A stretch of 32,000 bases of DNA from Nitrosopumilus sp. (GTDB taxonomy: Archaea; Thermoproteota; Nitrososphaeria; Nitrososphaerales; Nitrosopumilaceae): NCBI GenBank assembly GCA_965197525.1, contig OZ240211.1, positions 506,251-538,250 on the forward strand, written 5' to 3'. A program made the position numbers and the translations under genes. The notes under the pieces were generated by a model. It had not been told where the DNA came from and searched no databases. It was given only the letters and a program-made list of their open reading frames with translations. This document shows positions 6,581-32,000 of the stretch, in pieces. Every line of letters begins with the position of its first letter. Position 1 is the first letter of the stretch.

Positions 6581-6649
6581 ATCTCTTGACCACGTAATAT
6601 TGAATATAATAAAATTGGGAAAGGTTATCTTATATAAATTGCGTTTTTT

Positions 6650-6908
6650 GGTTCTGTAACATCTTCGAGACCCTTAGTGATGTTATCGCTGGCCTAAATA
6701 TACCATTCAAACTATCCTCTAGGTTTAGGGATAGTCGAGATGACATAGATGAAGCGAAGTCTGGCATTTTTGAGCCAGCGATGTTGGAATCTTGCAGATC
6801 AGTAATCTAGATAGTCGATATGTCAAAGTCGAGTGATAGAGAGAAAACAATTTGTTAATAATACAACAAAATTTCTTTGTTGATAGGTGTCTATAACCAG
6901 ACAGAACC
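6650..6908 (+). mobile_element. Miniature (MITE-like) TnpB-element derivative with no protein coding, retaining the left terminus and the right-end RNA block
   Basis: The left terminus is GGTTCTGTAACATCTTCGAGA (6650-6670) and the right terminus is ...CTATAACCAGACAGAACC (ends 6908). The interior 6716-6908 aligns to the 3' end and right end of the tnpB copies at 23255-23410 and 30529-30731. Confidence 0.6.
6716..6908 (+). ncRNA. Putative omega-RNA (right-end RNA) scaffold, orphan copy
   Basis: It starts at the conserved CCTCTAGGTTTAGGGATAGT block and ends at CAGAACC. It contains the hairpins CTGGC-N8-GCCAG and TTTGTTAATAATACAACAAA. There is no intact ORF on the + strand. Confidence 0.4.
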
Positions 6909-9805: not shown

Positions 9806-10233
9806 ACGATCAAGATAACAGTTGTATCTTATGAAGTTTTGAATTTAGTAGGCAAACTATACGTAGAGTAATTAACTGATACATTGAGGTACTCGATAAT
9901 GAACAGGTTTAAAATATGACACCATATCAACACGGATACTCAGAGAGATCATCTTCGTTGTCCTGTTGCTCGTCTAAAATTCGAAGATGGTATAGTATCG
10001 ATTTGTTGCCAGATGCCATAGCAAATTATGATAGAGAGGGTATAAAAACATGTTGTATGTAGCCATACCCTCCCCCACTTACATTATTAGATATAGATAC
10101 CCCCTCCCCCTCCCCTCCAAATACCCGCCCATTTATCTGTGCATCTATCCATATTCCAGTACATCATCGGGTTCTGTTGGGTTATCGAGATCTAAAACAT
10201 AGAAATAAATACTTTTAATCATTACCATAATCA

Positions 10234-10488
10234 TTGAACAGCACGAACACGCAATATCCAGGATGCGGAAAGAAACTCCAAGAGGATATTATGCAACAAC
10301 ATCATAAATTATCGTGTACTAATTGTGGATTGTTCATTGATATGAACGCATCTCACAAGCTGTCCCCTAGGTTTAGGGATAGTAGAGATGACATACATGA
10401 AGCGCAGTCTGGCACTTTTGAGTCAGCAATGTCGGAACCCAGCACACCGTCGGTAATCCGAATAGTCGATATGTCAAAGTCAGGTTAT
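10234..10488 (+). pseudogene. tnpB: TnpB C-terminal remnant (zinc ribbon and RuvC-III decayed)
   Basis: NSTNTQYPGCGKKLQED...SCTNCGLFIDMNASHKLSPRFRDSR aligns to PRNTSTQCPQCGKRLQED...CNNCGLFMDRDIIAAMNISRKLPPRFRGSR of the intact copy. The first Cys is changed to Tyr and the RDIIAA segment is deleted. Confidence 0.75.
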
Positions 10489-10547
10489 ATGGAGAGGAAC
10501 TTTGTTAATACACAACAAATTTCAGGTCTCGATAACCCAACAGAACC
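10364..10547 (+). ncRNA. Putative omega-RNA scaffold, orphan copy
   Basis: There is high nucleotide identity to 23255-23410, starting at CCCCTAGGTTTAGGGATAGTAGAG. It has the hairpins CTGGC-N8-GTCAG and TTTGTTAATACACAACAAA and ends at CAGAACC. Confidence 0.45.
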
Positions 10548-10550
10548 CTA

Positions 10551-11306
10551 CTATGGAAAAGAGTTCAGGGCAGATACATAGCTTGCAAATCGGTGATTTT
10601 TTGGCTTGACCTTTTTGTCATGGTATTTAACGGCGGATTTTTTGTTTACTGCACCATAAAGACCAAGTGGCGTATATCTAGGCAAGTTGTCGTGCGCCCA
10701 GCCAAGAACTTCATCATTTGGTGCATAATAGTTTACAGTTTTTGTTTTGATGATTGATTTGAATATTTTAGAGTATTGCAGGGATGAGGGTACATCATGG
10801 GTAATTGATGCACCAAAAAAATATACGCTGTTAATAATTCCAGTGTTTGTTTTCTTTCTTGCAAGATACGACAAAGTACTGAGGATTACCTGGGATCCAA
10901 GAGAGTGACCAAGCAGACGAATTCTAGTGCCAGGACTTGCGAGTTTAAAATCTTCAATGAATGCTCCAAGATTTTTACCGTTTTTCTTGGCAATAACTTG
11001 ACCTACTGCCAAAGCATGTTTTTGGTGTTTTGTGCTGTACGCACCTACGGTGTTTGAGTCGTAGCTGAATCCGATGACTGGGTGCATATAGCCTAATCTA
11101 CGTAGTCGAGTTTTGGCCAAGAGAGCTTTGGCAATGGCGCCTGCATTGTTGTTTCTAAAACCATGAATCATTATTACGAGTTCTTTTGAGCCGACTAATC
11201 CCTTAAAACCATTTTTTGGGTAAATACGATACAAGTCATTACGTAGGGCAGTGCCGTCAGATAGGTCATAGCATCCTCTGGTTGTGACTCGTAAAATGGG
11301 TTTCAT
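10551..11306 (-). CDS. Alpha/beta-fold serine hydrolase (DUF900/PGAP1-like)
   Basis: 251 aa with IMIHGF early in the sequence and the nucleophile elbow GHSLGSQV. It has a 4-nt ATGA overlap with the upstream metG stop. Confidence 0.7.
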   Translation of the reverse strand: MKPILRVTTRGCYDLSDGTALRNDLYRIYPKNGFKGLVGSKELVIMIHGFRNNNAGAIAKALLAKTRLRRLGYMHPVIGFSYDSNTVGAYSTKHQKHALAVGQVIAKKNGKNLGAFIEDFKLASPGTRIRLLGHSLGSQVILSTLSYLARKKTNTGIINSVYFFGASITHDVPSSLQYSKIFKSIIKTKTVNYYAPNDEVLGWAHDNLPRYTPLGLYGAVNKKSAVKYHDKKVKPKNHRFASYVSALNSFP

Positions 11307-22057: not shown

Positions 22058-22194
22058 ACGTATTCTTCAGAGAACCCCGATAATATCTGCTACGCTAGCA
22101 AGTAATACGGTTTTATTTGAAAAGGTTTTGTGAAGTTATCGGGAGTTATATGTCATCCCTAAAATGTATAAACCTCTGAACCGTAAGATATTCG

Positions 22195-23388
22195 TTGAGA
22201 GCGATAAAGTCAATATCACAGAAATATGCGCAAAACTCTGATCTAATGGATATGATGGCTATATTCACAAAGATGGTCAATCATTGCATCAAGATAGGGT
22301 TGAAAGAAGACACTCACAATATGAAGAGGTTGTCCATGTTATGTTATCATGAATTACGTAACTATGGCATTTTATCAACATACAAGATATGTGCAATATC
22401 AAGAGCTGCAGGCATATTATCAAACAGAAAACAATCAATCAAACGAGGTGTCAGAATAAGAGACCCAATAGTCAAAAATCCCTTTATGACAAACTGTTAC
22501 GGCATAAAACACAACGGTGCACTACTAACAATCCCATACAAGAAACATAACCCAATCAGCATTTTACTCAACGATCACACCCAAAAAATCCTATCTGATC
22601 CCGCCTTGACGGTGCGCTCGTTTTCATTGACTGCTCTCAACATCAGTCTTTGTGTTTCAAAAACAGTACAAGAGATAGAGTGCACCAAGAAGGTGGGAAT
22701 AGACAGAAACCTAAGAAATGTGACGTGTGGGGACGAGGAAGAGGTGACAGTCTACAAGACAAACAAACTGTTATCCATAAAGGAGAACACAATACACGCC
22801 AGGGCAGGCTTCCACAGAAATGATCGCAGGAAGAAAAATCAGTTCTACAAGGAAAAACAGAGAAGACTGACTAACAGAGCAAAGCAGTACATCCACAGAA
22901 TCTCAAAGGATATAGTAGACAACGCAGTCAAAAACAAGACTGCAATCGTCATGGAAAACCTGAAAGGAATAAGAAAATTGTACCGAAAAGGAAACACTCA
23001 AGGTAACAAGTACAGACGTAGATTGAACGGGTGGCAATTCTACGAGTTACAACGCCAAATAGAATACAAAGCCCAATGGGTCGGACTACCTCCAGTCGAG
23101 ACAGTAGACCCAAGAAACACGAGCACGCAGTGTCCACAATGCGGAAAGAGACTCCAAGAGGACATGCAACAACATCGTAAATTGTCGTGTAATAATTGCG
23201 GTTTGTTTATGGACAGGGACATCATCGCTGCCATGAACATATCACGCAAACTGCCCCCTAGGTTTAGGGGTAGTAGAGGTGACATAGATGAAGCACAGTC
23301 CGGCACTTTTGAGCAGGCGATGACGGAACCCAGCACACCATTGGTAATCCGAATAGTCGATATGTCAAAGTCGAGTTATAGGGGTTAA
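22195..23388 (+). CDS. tnpB: TnpB (IS605 OrfB-family) RNA-guided endonuclease, apparently intact
   Basis: 397 aa with RuvC-I VGIDRN (Asp ~170), RuvC-II VMENLKG (Glu ~254), zinc ribbon CPQCG...CNNCG and RuvC-III MDRDIIAAMNI. It has a TTG start; the paralog uses ATG at the equivalent codon. Confidence 0.92.
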   Translation: MRAIKSISQKYAQNSDLMDMMAIFTKMVNHCIKIGLKEDTHNMKRLSMLCYHELRNYGILSTYKICAISRAAGILSNRKQSIKRGVRIRDPIVKNPFMTNCYGIKHNGALLTIPYKKHNPISILLNDHTQKILSDPALTVRSFSLTALNISLCVSKTVQEIECTKKVGIDRNLRNVTCGDEEEVTVYKTNKLLSIKENTIHARAGFHRNDRRKKNQFYKEKQRRLTNRAKQYIHRISKDIVDNAVKNKTAIVMENLKGIRKLYRKGNTQGNKYRRRLNGWQFYELQRQIEYKAQWVGLPPVETVDPRNTSTQCPQCGKRLQEDMQQHRKLSCNNCGLFMDRDIIAAMNISRKLPPRFRGSRGDIDEAQSGTFEQAMTEPSTPLVIRIVDMSKSSYRG

Positions 23389-23410
23389 CTCCCGATAACT
23401 TCACAGAACC
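23255..23410 (+). ncRNA. Putative omega-RNA (reRNA) scaffold overlapping the tnpB 3' end and the right end
   Basis: This is the nucleotide block most conserved among all four copies, including the non-coding ones. A terminal hairpin GTTATAGGGGTTAACTCCCGATAAC lies just before TTCACAGAACC. The expected guide is the flank 23411-23430. Confidence 0.55.
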
Positions 23411-24759: not shown

Positions 24760-25320
24760 ATGGCTATAAGAAAAACTTCTACAGCTAAACGTAGAACAGC
24801 TAAGAAAACTACTGCAAGAAAGACATCTACAAAGAAAGCAGCTCCTAGACGAAGTGCAGCAAAGAAAGCAGCTCCTAGACGAAGTGCAGCAAAGAAAGCA
24901 GCTCCTAGACGAAGTGCAGCAAAGAAAGCAGCTCCTAGACGAAGTGCAGCAAAGAAAGCAGCTCCTAGACGAAGTGCAGCAAAGAAAGCAGCTCCTAGAC
25001 GAAGTGCAGCAAAGAAAGCAGCTCCTAGACGAAGTGCAGCAAAGAAAGCAGCTCCTAGACGAAGTGCAGCAAAGAAAGCAGCTCCTAGACGAAGTGCAGC
25101 AAAGAAAGCAGCTCCTAGACGAAGTGCAGCAAAGAAAGCAGCTCCTAGACGAAGTGCAGCAAAGAAAGCAGCTCCTAGACGAAGTGCAGCAAAGAAAGCA
25201 GCTCCTAGACGAAGTGCAGCAAAGAAAGCAGCTCCTAGACGAAGTGCAGCAAAGAAAGCAGCTCCTAGACGAAGTGCAGCAAAGAAAGCAGCTCCTAGAC
25301 GAAGTGCAAAGAGACGATAA
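24760..25320 (+). CDS. Highly basic Ala/Lys/Arg/Pro repeat protein (histone H1-tail-like), 16 x AAPRRSAAKK
   Basis: It starts with ATG, and the non-repeat N-terminus MAIRKTSTAKRRTAKKTTARKTSTKK has the same composition as the repeats. The stop comes directly after a degenerate last repeat. Other frames of the repeat are open only because the unit has no stop codon. Confidence 0.6.
   Translation: MAIRKTSTAKRRTAKKTTARKTSTKKAAPRRSAAKKAAPRRSAAKKAAPRRSAAKKAAPRRSAAKKAAPRRSAAKKAAPRRSAAKKAAPRRSAAKKAAPRRSAAKKAAPRRSAAKKAAPRRSAAKKAAPRRSAAKKAAPRRSAAKKAAPRRSAAKKAAPRRSAAKKAAPRRSAAKKAAPRRSAKRR
24838..25308. repeat. Perfect 30-bp tandem repeat, 15 identical units plus a 21-nt partial
   Basis: The unit GCAGCTCCTAGACGAAGTGCAGCAAAGAAA recurs with no mismatch from 24838 to 25287, and the next unit diverges after 21 nt. 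Confidence 0.98.
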
Positions 25321-25549: not shown

Positions 25550-27229
25550 TCAATAAAGATAACTCATTAATTTAATCTCTTCTTCAGTGCTAATGATGTT
25601 TTTAGCTGTTAGAACTTCTAACAGATCCTTAAAAAGTGCTTTTTGCTCACTAGACATTCCACCGGTAGGACCCTTATCACCTGGTAATCCCGGAGGACCT
25701 CGTGGGCCTGGAGGACCTAATGGGCCTTGCTCACCTGGAGGACCTTGCTCACCTAGAGGGCCTAATGGGCCTTTTGAACCTCGCTCTCCTTGAGGACCCT
25801 GAATTCCTTGTGGGCCTTGTGGGCCTTTCTCACCTGCAGGACCGGTAGGACCTCGCTCTCCTTGGGAACCTTGTGGGCCTTGTGGGCCTTTGGCGCCTAC
25901 AGGACCTAGTGGGCCGGTAGAGCCTCGCTCTCCAATCTGTCCGACACGTCCCTTCTCACCTCGCTCACCCTGTATTCCTGGAACGCCTGTCATTCCTTTC
26001 TCACCTGGAGGACCTTGTGGGCCTTGTGGACCAGTCTCACCTTGTGGACCATCAACGCCCTTGTTTCCTTTCTCACCGGGGGGACCAGTTGGACCTGCTA
26101 GTCCTTTTGGACCTTTGTCGCCTTGTGGACCCGTAACACCTGTTAATCCTTTTGAGCCTGTGGCGCCCTGCGGGCCTTGTAGACCCTTCTCACCTGGAGA
26201 ACCTTTGTCACCAGTTGGGCCTTTCTCACCCGTAGCACCTTGTGGGCCAAGTAAACCTTGTGGACCTTTGTCGCCTTTGATTCCAACAGGACCTGTTAAT
26301 CCTTTTGAACCCACAGGACCGGGGGAACCTTGCGGACCTTTGTCGCCCGGAGAACCGAGTTGGCCTGTAGGGCCTTTTGAACCCTTATCCCCCATATGAC
26401 CATGAGGACCTTTGTCACCTATAGGGCCTTTGTCACCAGTTGGACCCTTGGTGCCCACAGGACCTGCAGGACCTTGCAGTCCTTTGTCACCCTGAATTCC
26501 AGGAAAGCCAGTTGGGCCCTTTTCACCAGCAGGTCCAGGTGGACCGGTAAGTCCTTTGTCACCAGGCATGCCCTGTGGGCCTTTGTCACCCTTATCGCCA
26601 ATAACCCCGCGTAAACCAAGAGGGCCTTTGTCGCCAAGAGGACCTTTGTCACCTGGAGGACCACGCTCACCTTGCACACCTGAAGGTCCAGATGGACCTT
26701 TGTCACCTTTAGAACCCATACGTCCAGAGGATCCAGTAGAAACGGCAATATCAGATGAGCCTTCAGGCGTGGATGGTTTTTGTCGTCCAGATGAGGGTTT
26801 GGTAATAGTAGAAGAGGAGGAGGAGGAAGAGGAAGATGCAGGAGGAACAATAGACATGCCAGATTTAACATCATGTGTAGCAGAAGCATCTGCATCCTTG
26901 CTGGATTTATCAGTTTTTAGAGCCTTCTTTTTCAAAGAGACCTCAAATACAGTATGTGCAGAAGAGAACGAATCATATGCGACAATCCAAATTTTATCTA
27001 GTGCGTCAATTGACGGAGGCAGTGGATTTAGTGCAGACCCCAGCGTTTCAAAAAACACGCCATCGCGTACGCGTAGATGAAAGTGGTCTTTCCAGAGATA
27101 TTTGAACTGTTTTGACATTATGGAATCATCAGTAGGCTTGGATGTTGTGATAGCAATTTCAGTCTCATAGACTCCAGGCTGGGTTATTGGCGCAGGTCCG
27201 CTTACCTCTAACTTTGATGCAGATGACAC
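25550..27229 (-). CDS. Collagen-like triple-helix repeat protein
   Basis: 559 aa. Residues 169-522 (nt 25664-26725) are about 118 uninterrupted Gly-X-Y triplets (GDKGPQG, GERGPPG and similar). The 168-aa N-terminal non-collagen domain ends in a Ser9 linker, and there is a 37-aa C-terminal helical tail. It has a GTG start and no in-frame upstream ATG. Confidence 0.85.
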
Positions 27230-30528: not shown

Positions 30529-30731
30529 GGTTCTGTCTAATCATAGTGAGATAAAATCTAAACTCCGAAAAAAAGTTTTGTTGTAATATTAACAAAGTGT
30601 CTTTTTCCCATCAGTTGACTTTGACATATCGACTATTTGGATTACCGGTGTACAGGGTTCCAACATCGCTAACTCAAAAACATTAGACTTCGCTTCACTT
30701 ATGCCAACTCTACTATCCCTAAACCTAGGGG
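30529..30731 (-). ncRNA. Putative omega-RNA scaffold of the frameshifted element
   Basis: The reverse complement starts CCCCTAGGTTTAGGGATAGTAGAG and ends GATTAGACAGAACC. It has the compensated hairpin CTAAT-N8-GTTAG and the TTTGTTAATATTACAACAAA hairpin. Confidence 0.45.
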
Positions 30732-31792
30732 ACAGTTTGTGAGGTATATTTATAGCAGCAATAACGTCTCTGTCCATAAACAACCCACAATTATTGCACG
30801 ACTTTTTACGATGGTGTTGCAAGTCCTCTTGGAGTTTCTTTCCGCATCTTGGACATTGCGAGCTCGTGTTTTTTGGGTCTACAAATTTTACTGGAAGCCC
30901 TACCCATTGGGCTTTGTATTGTATTTGTCTTTGAAATTCAAAGAATTGCCATCCGTTTAATCTACGTCTGTACTTGTTACCTTGACCATTGCCTTTCTTG
31001 TATAATTTTCTTATTCCTTTTAGATCTTCTAGAATAATCATGGTTTTGTTTTTGACTGCTCGTTCTACAATATCTTTTGAGATTCTATGTATGTATTGTT
31101 TGGTTCTTTGAGACATTCTTCTCTGCTTTATCTTCCAGAACTGATCTTTCTTTCTACGGTCATTTCTATGAAATCCAGCTCTAGCGTGTATTGTATTTTC
31201 TTTAATTGATAGTAATTTATTTGTCTTGTATACTATAACTTTTTTCTCATTCCCACAAGTGACATTTCTAAGATTTCTGTCTAATTCCTACCGGTACATT
31301 AGTACATTCTATTTCTTCAACTTTTTTTGAAACACAAAAACTGATACTTTTTTCATTCATAATAAATGATCTTATATTTAAATCAGGATTAGATAGTATT
31401 TTTTGAGTGTGATCATTTAATAATATGTTTATGGGGTTTCTATTTTTGTATGGTATTGTCATTAAACTACCATTATGTTTGATACCATAACAATTTGTAA
31501 TAAATAACTTTTTTACAACTAGGTCTCTTACTGTAACACCACGCTTTATTGACTGTTTTCTGTTAGATAGTATGCCAACAGCACGTGATATTGCATTTAT
31601 TTTATATGAACCTAAAACATCATAGTCTCTAAATTCATGATAACAAAGTGGAGACAACTGTTTCAAACTATGTACGTCTTCTCTTAACCCTATTCTAATG
31701 GAACGATTTACCATTTTTATGAATATCTCCATCAACTCTTTTAGATCAGAATTTGGTGTATGTTTCTGTGTTATTGATTTTAATGCCTTCAT
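30589..31792 (-). pseudogene. tnpB: tnpB disrupted by a single-nucleotide insertion just before the RuvC-I Asp codon
   Basis: The N-terminal ORF (31268-31792) and the C-terminal frame (open from 31281 to 30589) both align to the intact copy. GGAATTAGACAG here corresponds to GGAATAGACAG in the intact copy, so there is one extra base at plus-strand 31283/31284. Downstream E, Zn-ribbon and DRD motifs are intact. Confidence 0.85.
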
Positions 31793-32000
31793 ACTACTAG
31801 AACATGTTTTATTTTTTTAATAAAGGTACTTTTTTTGAAATTATTTTTATTCTTTGCCACTTGATAATCCAATAAAACCATTATTTGTTATTGTAAATCT
31901 AGATAAAAATTTATCTCCCTATAAATAGACAGAACACTGTATAGGTAAGTATTAATTGTTTATGCTACAAGAATACAATATGCAAAAGGCGACCATAGCA

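Follow-up and report, generated by a model that had tools for sequence, protein, structure and literature searches.

The locus studied here raises the question of whether a transposable element that has lost its protein can persist as a gene for a guide RNA. It lies in a 32,000-nucleotide (nt) stretch of DNA from Nitrosopumilus sp. (GenBank assembly GCA_965197525.1, contig OZ240211.1, positions 506,251 to 538,250 of the forward strand), which is referred to as the window and whose own numbering is used throughout. A conserved RNA block, associated with genes for the RNA-guided nuclease TnpB, is present in four copies in this 32-kb window (A, B, C, and D), two of which (A and B) are without tnpB. 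An earlier note on the window had pointed to mini element B, at 10170 to 10547, as a possible stand-alone guide-RNA gene. Our analysis favors a reading that we regard as probable, if far from certain: B is a non-autonomous, protein-less derivative of a tnpB transposon that still specifies an ωRNA, the RNA of the obligate mobile element-guided activity (OMEGA) systems, with its own flank as the guide and with TnpB supplied in trans.

Anatomy of mini element B

As the earlier note had reported, the window contains a perfect 22-nt complement between 10169-10190 (GGGTTCTGTTGGGTTATCGAGA) and 10527-10548. The inverted repeat extends imperfectly to 36 nt at 86%, and the 19-mer TCGATAACCCAACAGAACC taken from it has 3 matches in the window, versus 0.01 expected by chance. 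Comparison with 35 related elements placed the true ends of B (GGTTCTG...CAGAACC) at 10170 and 10547 on the plus strand, the outermost G/C pair of the complement being flank outside B proper. The length is 378 bp rather than the 380 bp given before, and the description of B as a protein-less derivative bounded by terminal inverted repeats (TIRs) was upheld. Alignment of the DNA to full-length copies showed that a left part of ~66 bp, including the TTG start and 2 codons, is joined in frame to tnpB codon ~308; the fusion of the left end to the 3′ part of tnpB had thus been recognized correctly, with the left part put too short at ~45 bp. The features of B and its flanks are as follows.

10159-10161, plus strand: position resembling a transposon-associated motif (TAM), GTA at −11 to −9, in register with the T-T-R motif of the family
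10170-10190, plus strand: left TIR, GGTTCTGTTGGGTTATCGAGA, whose first 10 nt are the IS6/IS26 TIR consensus
10203-10212, plus strand: A/T-rich TATA-like box, AAATAAATAC, ~26 nt upstream of the TTG and aligning with TGTATAAAC of copy C
10234-10353, plus strand: coding remnant, a TTG start and 2 codons fused to a decayed zinc-finger/RuvC-III part of tnpB
10354-10480, plus strand: ωRNA scaffold core with stem 1, the long-range stem TGACATA/TATGTCA, stem 2, and two inner stems (nhmmer E=1.4e-19)
10481-10540, plus strand: terminal hairpin, with the right TIR as its 3′ arm and an extra apical stem-loop TTTGTT/AACAAA common to A and D
10527-10547, plus strand: right TIR, ending in the invariant ACAGAACC
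10548-10567, plus strand: putative guide, flank CTACTATGGAAAAGAGTTCA (starting CTACTATGGAAAAGAG at 10548), assigned by position only

The translation of 10234-10581 (LNSTNTQYPGCGKKLQEDIMQQHHKLSCTNCGLFIDMNASHKLSPRFRDSRDD...) aligns to the C terminus of the 397-amino-acid (aa) protein of copy C (NTSTQCPQCGKRLQEDMQQHRKLSCNNCGLFMDRDIIAAMNISRKLPPRFRGSRGD), and the damage described earlier was confirmed. The first zinc-finger Cys has become Tyr (CPQC to YPGC), and an 18-nt deletion has taken out DRDIIAA, including the invariant Asp of RuvC-III (D342). The open reading frame (ORF) at 10234-10581 is open over 115 codons; the original tnpB stop is lost, and the frame runs through the TIR into the flank. 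A 79-aa protein is annotated in the source genome as its product. A TnpB-type protein is not encoded by B, and the ORF matches no Pfam or NCBIfam family. The TATA-like box is a putative tnpB promoter, probably retained from the parent element.

To the right of B lies a DUF726 hydrolase gene (10551-11306, minus strand), the length of which is unchanged versus its orthologs. Its stop codon is at 10551-10553, in agreement with the earlier statement that the flank from 10548 onward overlaps the hydrolase stop, and the putative guide is antisense to the last codons and the stop of the gene. In size and structure B resembles a miniature inverted-repeat transposable element (MITE), being shorter than ~600 bp and having a dead coding remnant and perfect 21-bp TIRs of the family type.

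A covariation-supported RNA that ends in the right TIR

A consensus RNA was derived from an alignment of 12 marine copies. It comprises 30 base pairs in six helices, and 16 of these pairs show compensatory double changes. Paired cells amounted to 97.5%, versus 82% in shuffles, of which none in 500 reached the observed value, and they dropped to 23 to 42% when the partners were slid by 1 to 3 columns. For example, CTGTCCC/GGGATAG is replaced by GCGTGGC/GCCATGC inside the tnpB coding sequence and CTGGC/GCCAG by GTTCC/GGAAC, and the long-range helix TGACATA/TATGTCA is maintained. B keeps 29 and A all 30 of the 30 consensus pairs. The ωRNA block matches no Rfam family at gathering thresholds or at E≤10, and folds of single sequences were not significant (z of −0.8 to −1.8), comparative analysis alone being informative.

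In all 33 of the family members folded, a hairpin with the right TIR as its 3′ arm follows the conserved ...GATRNNNNNAAG motif. The right TIR thus has a double role, as the DNA end of the transposon and as the last stem of the RNA scaffold. The arms of this hairpin covary between subfamilies and leave ACAGAACC single-stranded at the element boundary, and the apical insertion seen in B, A, and D falls in a structure-neutral place. As in OMEGA systems, tnpB and the structured RNA overlap at the 3′ end of the gene, and the RNA stops at the right transposon end. Since the RNA block ends exactly at the boundary of B, any transcript reading through it would carry the flank as a guide.

Selective conservation of the RNA block in the mini elements

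The other three copies in the window are as follows.

6650-6908, plus strand: mini element A, 259 bp, ~27 nt of left end joined to a RuvC-III remnant (DVIAG...) and a complete RNA block
22124-23410, plus strand: full-length element C, 1,287 bp, with 24-bp TIRs, an intact tnpB at 22195-23388, and an ωRNA core at 23245-23371
30529-31937, minus strand: full-length element D, 1,409 bp, with a perfect 8-bp target-site duplication (TSD), CCTATACA, and a frameshifted tnpB

In D, tnpB is split by one extra T exactly in the catalytic GIDRN codons of RuvC-I, and a 1-nt indel is present at the left end (GTGTTCTG). The earlier note had reported neither A nor D, and it had likewise passed over the IS6-like TIRs and TSDs of the family and its TAM-like motif.

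The decay of coding and RNA segments was compared at those columns that do not vary among 7 full-length copies, which represent at least 3 subfamilies. At such columns B is changed in 10 of 78 cases in the zinc-finger segment and in 1 of 92 in the RNA block (Fisher test, p=0.003; 0.012 to 0.023 with stricter counting and ~0.02 with substitutions only). In the RuvC-III segment 14 of 23 invariant columns differ, 11 of them being lost in the 18-nt deletion. These counts give a signature of purifying selection on the RNA block after the death of the gene. The RNA block of B is 89% identical to that of copy C, which bears out the earlier claim that it had stayed close to the intact copy. The differences (14 of 126 positions) lie nearly all at columns that vary among functional copies, which argues that B is a distinct lineage and was not recently converted from C.

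Mini elements A and B are independent deletions; their breakpoints differ, and both spare the same ~190 to 230 nt. The RNA core of A (6707-6829) was detected with E=4e-17, and 6 of the 92 invariant columns of its RNA block are changed. Four of these changes affect paired columns, each time with the pairing preserved (one G·U to A-U, two G-C to G·U, and one C-G to U-A double change). An in-frame TAG in the coding remnant of A arises from one change that merely turns a G-C pair into G·U. The TIRs of A are mismatched (15/24) and come from different subfamilies, and A is without a TSD. A palindromic TATA-like box, TTATATAA, was also noticed at 6630-6637, ~13 nt upstream of the left end of A. The pattern in the mini elements is apparently the one expected if RNA, not protein, is preserved, the counts being small and coming from two elements.

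An intact TnpB in a widespread archaeal family

The TnpB encoded by copy C (397 aa) matches Pfam PF07282 (Cas12f1-like_TNB) with E=7e-21 and NCBIfam NF040570 (guided_TnpB) with 125 bits versus a cutoff of 100; the solved structures nearest to it in the PDB are Cas12f and TnpB. D170, E254, and D342 together with C313, C316, C332, and C335 are invariant in an alignment of 34 sequences and are all present in copy C, which carries both the RuvC-like D/E/D triad and the C4 zinc finger of a TnpB. The earlier note had named this protein (22195-23388) as one that might serve B in trans. The protein is indeed intact and its gene is 12 kb from B; a specific partnership found no support, the source contig carrying many tnpB paralogs.

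The family comprises 1,641 members at E<1e-10, and those with a named source all belong to Nitrosopumilales or Nitrososphaerota; it is widespread in ammonia-oxidizing archaea (Nitrososphaerota). A genome scan with an invariant 20-mer of the family yielded 13 copies, all of them in another Nitrosopumilus metagenome-assembled genome, OZ245003.1, and the measurable ones were full-length; the metagenome scan with this 20-mer gave zero matches. Eighty metagenomic relatives with 41 to 65% protein identity were taken into the analysis.

Transposon ends and target-site duplications

All family elements start with GGTTCTG (or GGCTCTG or GGCACTG) and end with CAGAACC, with inverted repeats of 16 to 24 bp. 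Perfect 8-bp direct repeats, unrelated in sequence, flank at least 19 elements. The IS6/IS26 family has the TIR consensus GGTTCTGTTGCAAA with conserved G1, G2, and G7 and makes 8-bp TSDs (PMC6807381). The elements studied here agree with it in both respects: their TIRs begin with GGTTCTGT, or in some relatives with GGTTCTGCTGCAAACTCGG, and 10 of 14 consensus positions are matched by B and 13 of 14 by L035 and L042, two of the related loci. Loci with perfect 8-bp TSDs are listed below.

L004, L007, L009 to L012, L018, L028, L032, L040, L057, L067, L068, L072, L090, L094, L102, and element D of the window

By contrast, elements of the IS200/IS605 and IS607 families have neither TIRs nor TSDs (PMC13565253, PMC6188088), and the presence of both here therefore excludes either membership. 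For IS200/IS605, including its palindrome-associated transposable elements (PATEs), the 21- to 24-bp TIRs, the 8-bp TSDs, and the lack of tnpA in any locus all speak against it; a single-strand mechanism of the IS200/IS605 type is ruled out by the TSDs and by the absence of a left-end hairpin. For IS607, TIRs and TSDs are present and no serine recombinase adjoins any copy.

Neither the elements nor the window nor ~660 kb of related loci yielded an IS6-type DDE transposase (with the H-HTH domain), and the family is presumably mobilized in trans. Several candidates for the mobilizing transposase were rejected: the insertions inside L010 and L013 are IS630-like, those in L006 and L102 are IS4/ISH3-like, and the apparent TIR pair in L081 encloses no transposase; none of them has GGTTCTG ends. 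Three of these insertions are nested in tnpB elements, namely the IS630-like ones (DDE_3/HTH) at 4744-5850 of L010 and 2882-4150 of L013 and a GC-rich IS4/ISH3-like one at ~7250-8650 of L102.

Other observations concern the genomic setting of family members. L005 (5308-6598) and L008 (3399-4689), both from OZ245003.1, hold identical elements in which the left TSD of each equals the right flank of the other, and the swapped flanks indicate a chromosomal inversion by recombination between copies. Another element lies at ~10001-11122 of L101 (ERZ25067264 ctg820438), within ~30 small co-oriented ORFs of unassigned function and a gene for a terminase large subunit; this region is provirus- or virus-like and comes from a relative of Nitrosopumilus. 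In L100 an element (419-1916) sits between the genes for the urease gamma and beta subunits, interrupting the ure operon of a relative.

A TAM-like motif 5′ of the insertions

Left flanks of 35 family elements (the window copies and loci L001 to L094) were aligned on the element start. T is found at −10 in 32 of 35 flanks, A or G at −9 in 34 of 35, and T at −11 in 23 of 35, with a background T frequency of 0.40. This T-T-R motif is directly 5′ of the left 8-bp duplication, and no mirrored signal follows the right duplication. An empty site would accordingly read TTR, 8 bp, and right flank, which is the order of a TAM followed by guide-matched sequence. Judged from this alignment, T-T-R looks like a candidate TAM of the family. 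At an occupied site only 8 nt beside the TAM would match the guide, and the site would be protected from cleavage. A has TTG in register with the motif. Such an asymmetric motif is unexpected for a DDE-type element with symmetric ends and could reflect either the survival of TnpB-homed insertions or an asymmetry of the transposase.

Surroundings of B and other genes of the window

Three related hydrolase loci are without B, and their downstream sequence is unrelated, so that the pre-insertion site and its TSD are not reconstructable from them. The stretch just left of B, at 10057-10135, is C-rich and of low complexity (CCCTCCCCC... repeats). Its homolog in L095, the closest hydrolase ortholog locus, is a G-rich tract in the corresponding intergenic space, which marks the tract as host sequence outside B; where B sits in the window, L095 has ~740 bp of unrelated sequence (1767-2510). 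Downstream of the hydrolase gene there appears to be an insertion hotspot of variable content.

Two further genes of the window are unusual in an archaeal genome. The one at 25550-27229 on the minus strand encodes 559 aa with collagen triple-helix repeats (Pfam E=1e-59), and adjoining it, at 24760-25320 on the plus strand, is a lysine-rich ORF resembling the histone H1-like protein HC2.

How B may have arisen and what it may do

The parent of B would have been an element of ~1.29 kb with IS6/IS26-like inverted ends of 21 to 24 bp and 8-bp duplications, encoding only TnpB and an ωRNA that shares sequence with the 3′ end of tnpB and extends as far as the right end. An in-frame internal deletion would have taken out codons ~4 to 307, with decay of the leftover coding part afterwards. 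B would thereby have retained the left end, with the presumed promoter and start of tnpB, and the whole ωRNA scaffold. Transcription starting at the presumed promoter in the left end would continue past the scaffold into flanking DNA and yield an ωRNA with the guide CTACTATGGAAAAGAG..., which one of the many intact TnpB paralogs in the genome would have to bind in trans; cleavage or homing, if any, would follow from such loading.

Several points weigh against this reading. B lacks a TSD (3 of 8 positions match), so that recent transposition of the MITE type is unsupported, and a second B-type mini element was not found in the window, in ~660 kb of related loci, or, via the ORF, in the protein database. 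The earlier view of B as a member of a multicopy mobile MITE family was therefore not sustained. The guide of B has no TAM-flanked match in the window, and its sole conceivable target would be an empty allele of its own site. Evidence for a promoter in B consists of a TATA-like motif, and the selection test in B has small counts from one element. Furthermore, if mobilization is IS6-like, that is, replicative and without excision, the idea that guide RNAs are retained for restorative homing becomes weaker.

Some of the same points would suit an alternative that we consider less likely, though it has a real chance of being correct, in which B is an inert, decaying relic of an internal deletion that occurred in place and its RNA block looks conserved by chance, through local differences in mutation rate, or by past gene conversion from full-length copies. 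A single copy without a TSD is what a relic would look like, the selection signal (p=0.003 to 0.02) comes from small counts in one element, and A, with its degenerate TIRs, carries more changes in the RNA block than B does (6/92). However, the TIRs of B are perfect despite a heavily damaged coding remnant, the RNA-block changes of both B and A are limited to variable or pair-preserving positions, and the 11% divergence of the B block from the nearest copy makes recent conversion unlikely. Retention of the right-hand ~190 bp for reasons at the DNA level, such as subterminal binding sites or structure needed by a transposase rather than a guide-RNA role, appears improbable to us. Mobilizable derivatives must keep both ends, the right TIR belongs to a conserved hairpin, and a long right end has survived in A as well as in B; yet IS6/IS26-type ends need only ~14 to 18 bp of TIR (PMC6807381), and the compensatory changes reach 190 nt inward, within the tnpB coding sequence, as fits a transcript structured like other ωRNAs. 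We give still less credence to a functional C-terminal TnpB fragment encoded by the 115-codon frame, for instance a regulator or a competitor for ωRNA binding: neither the deletion nor the two later indels shift the frame, the ORF is open, and its 79-aa product is on record in a protein collection, but the zinc ligand, the catalytic segment, and the stop are gone and the frame enters the flank, no Pfam or NCBIfam family is matched, homologous short proteins were not found elsewhere, and the corresponding part of A is interrupted by an in-frame stop.

Taken together, the evidence favors B as a probable protein-less source of ωRNA, which TnpB would serve in trans. A broader picture that we put forward tentatively, as a possibility short of an expectation, concerns ammonia-oxidizing archaea, in which TnpB and its ωRNA would be carried by IS6/IS26-type ends in insertions of nearly only one orientation, 8 bp downstream of T-T-R. 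The persistence of such DDE-type insertions would be decided by RNA-guided cutting of empty sites (homing), or even by a target choice that TnpB assists, and the RNA-only copies at 10170-10547 and 6650-6908 would be kept by selection as guide-RNA parasites of the TnpB pool. If the RNA-only copies are functional, the guide RNA alone can be a unit of selection in a TnpB system, and TnpB can be shared in trans among archaeal elements. The family itself is a natural prokaryotic coupling of an OMEGA nuclease to a TIR- and TSD-bearing, presumably DDE, transposon; such couplings were called rare in a 2026 review (PMC13565253). It makes testable the question of whether TnpB homing can operate together with transposons that lack scarless excision and influence where they insert, and it supplies a compact archaeal TnpB (397 aa), a defined scaffold of ~190 nt, and a probable short TAM.

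Comparison with known systems

PATEs that lack ORFs, carry ωRNAs, and are served in trans by TnpB were proposed by Meers et al. (2023, PMC10055086); use of an ωRNA in trans by TnpB has been shown experimentally in other systems, and PATEs with IStron ends have been noted. Like B, the PATEs of IS200/IS605 are protein-less, keep both ends together with the ωRNA-coding right end, and presumably depend on a transposase and a TnpB in trans. PATEs, however, are without terminal inverted repeats or target duplications (PMC3119063), whereas B has perfect 21-bp TIRs and belongs to a parent family with 8-bp TSDs.

The OMEGA systems of IS200/IS605 and IS607, such as ISDra2, share with the family the D/E/D triad, the zinc finger, an RNA overlapping the 3′ end of tnpB and ending at the right boundary, a putative guide taken from the flank, and a short conserved motif 5′ of the site that such a guide would match. 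Unlike them, the family has no tnpA (Y1 or serine recombinase) in the sequence sampled and has inverted repeats and TSDs instead of asymmetric hairpin ends; the 8-bp duplication lies between its TAM-like motif and the left end, and its RNA is without an Rfam match. IS607 elements in particular are recognized by the lack of TIRs and TSDs, a serine recombinase TnpA, and insertion at GG.

Closer in architecture are the DDE-associated or solo TnpBs (branches DDE-1 to DDE-6), in which, according to Altae-Tran et al. (2023, PNAS, PMC10691335), tnpB lies less than 250 bp from a symmetric transposon end, as it does here. The same paper describes solo tnpB elements whose ends are those of transposase-bearing elements and whose mobilization presumably occurs in trans. 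In the literature, ISL2, IS630, and IS1031 are the named DDE partners (PMC13565253), whereas the present family has ends that agree with IS6/IS26, and a partner transposase did not turn up. With IS6/IS26 and their MITEs the family has in common the TIR start GGTTCTGT, G1/G2/G7, and 8-bp TSDs; it differs in its cargo of tnpB and ωRNA and in the asymmetric target motif, a feature that has not been reported for IS6/IS26.

In the searchable literature there was no paper with both Nitrosopumilus and TnpB, nor one with TnpB and IS6-type ends. The idea of ORF-less ωRNA elements served in trans was already put forward by Meers et al., and TnpB within inverted-repeat, DDE-type ends is known from Altae-Tran et al. 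What appears to be new is a thaumarchaeal family with IS6/IS26-like ends and 8-bp TSDs in which the right TIR is built into the ωRNA, together with its asymmetric TTR-N8 insertion context and its TIR-bounded derivatives that keep the RNA alone.

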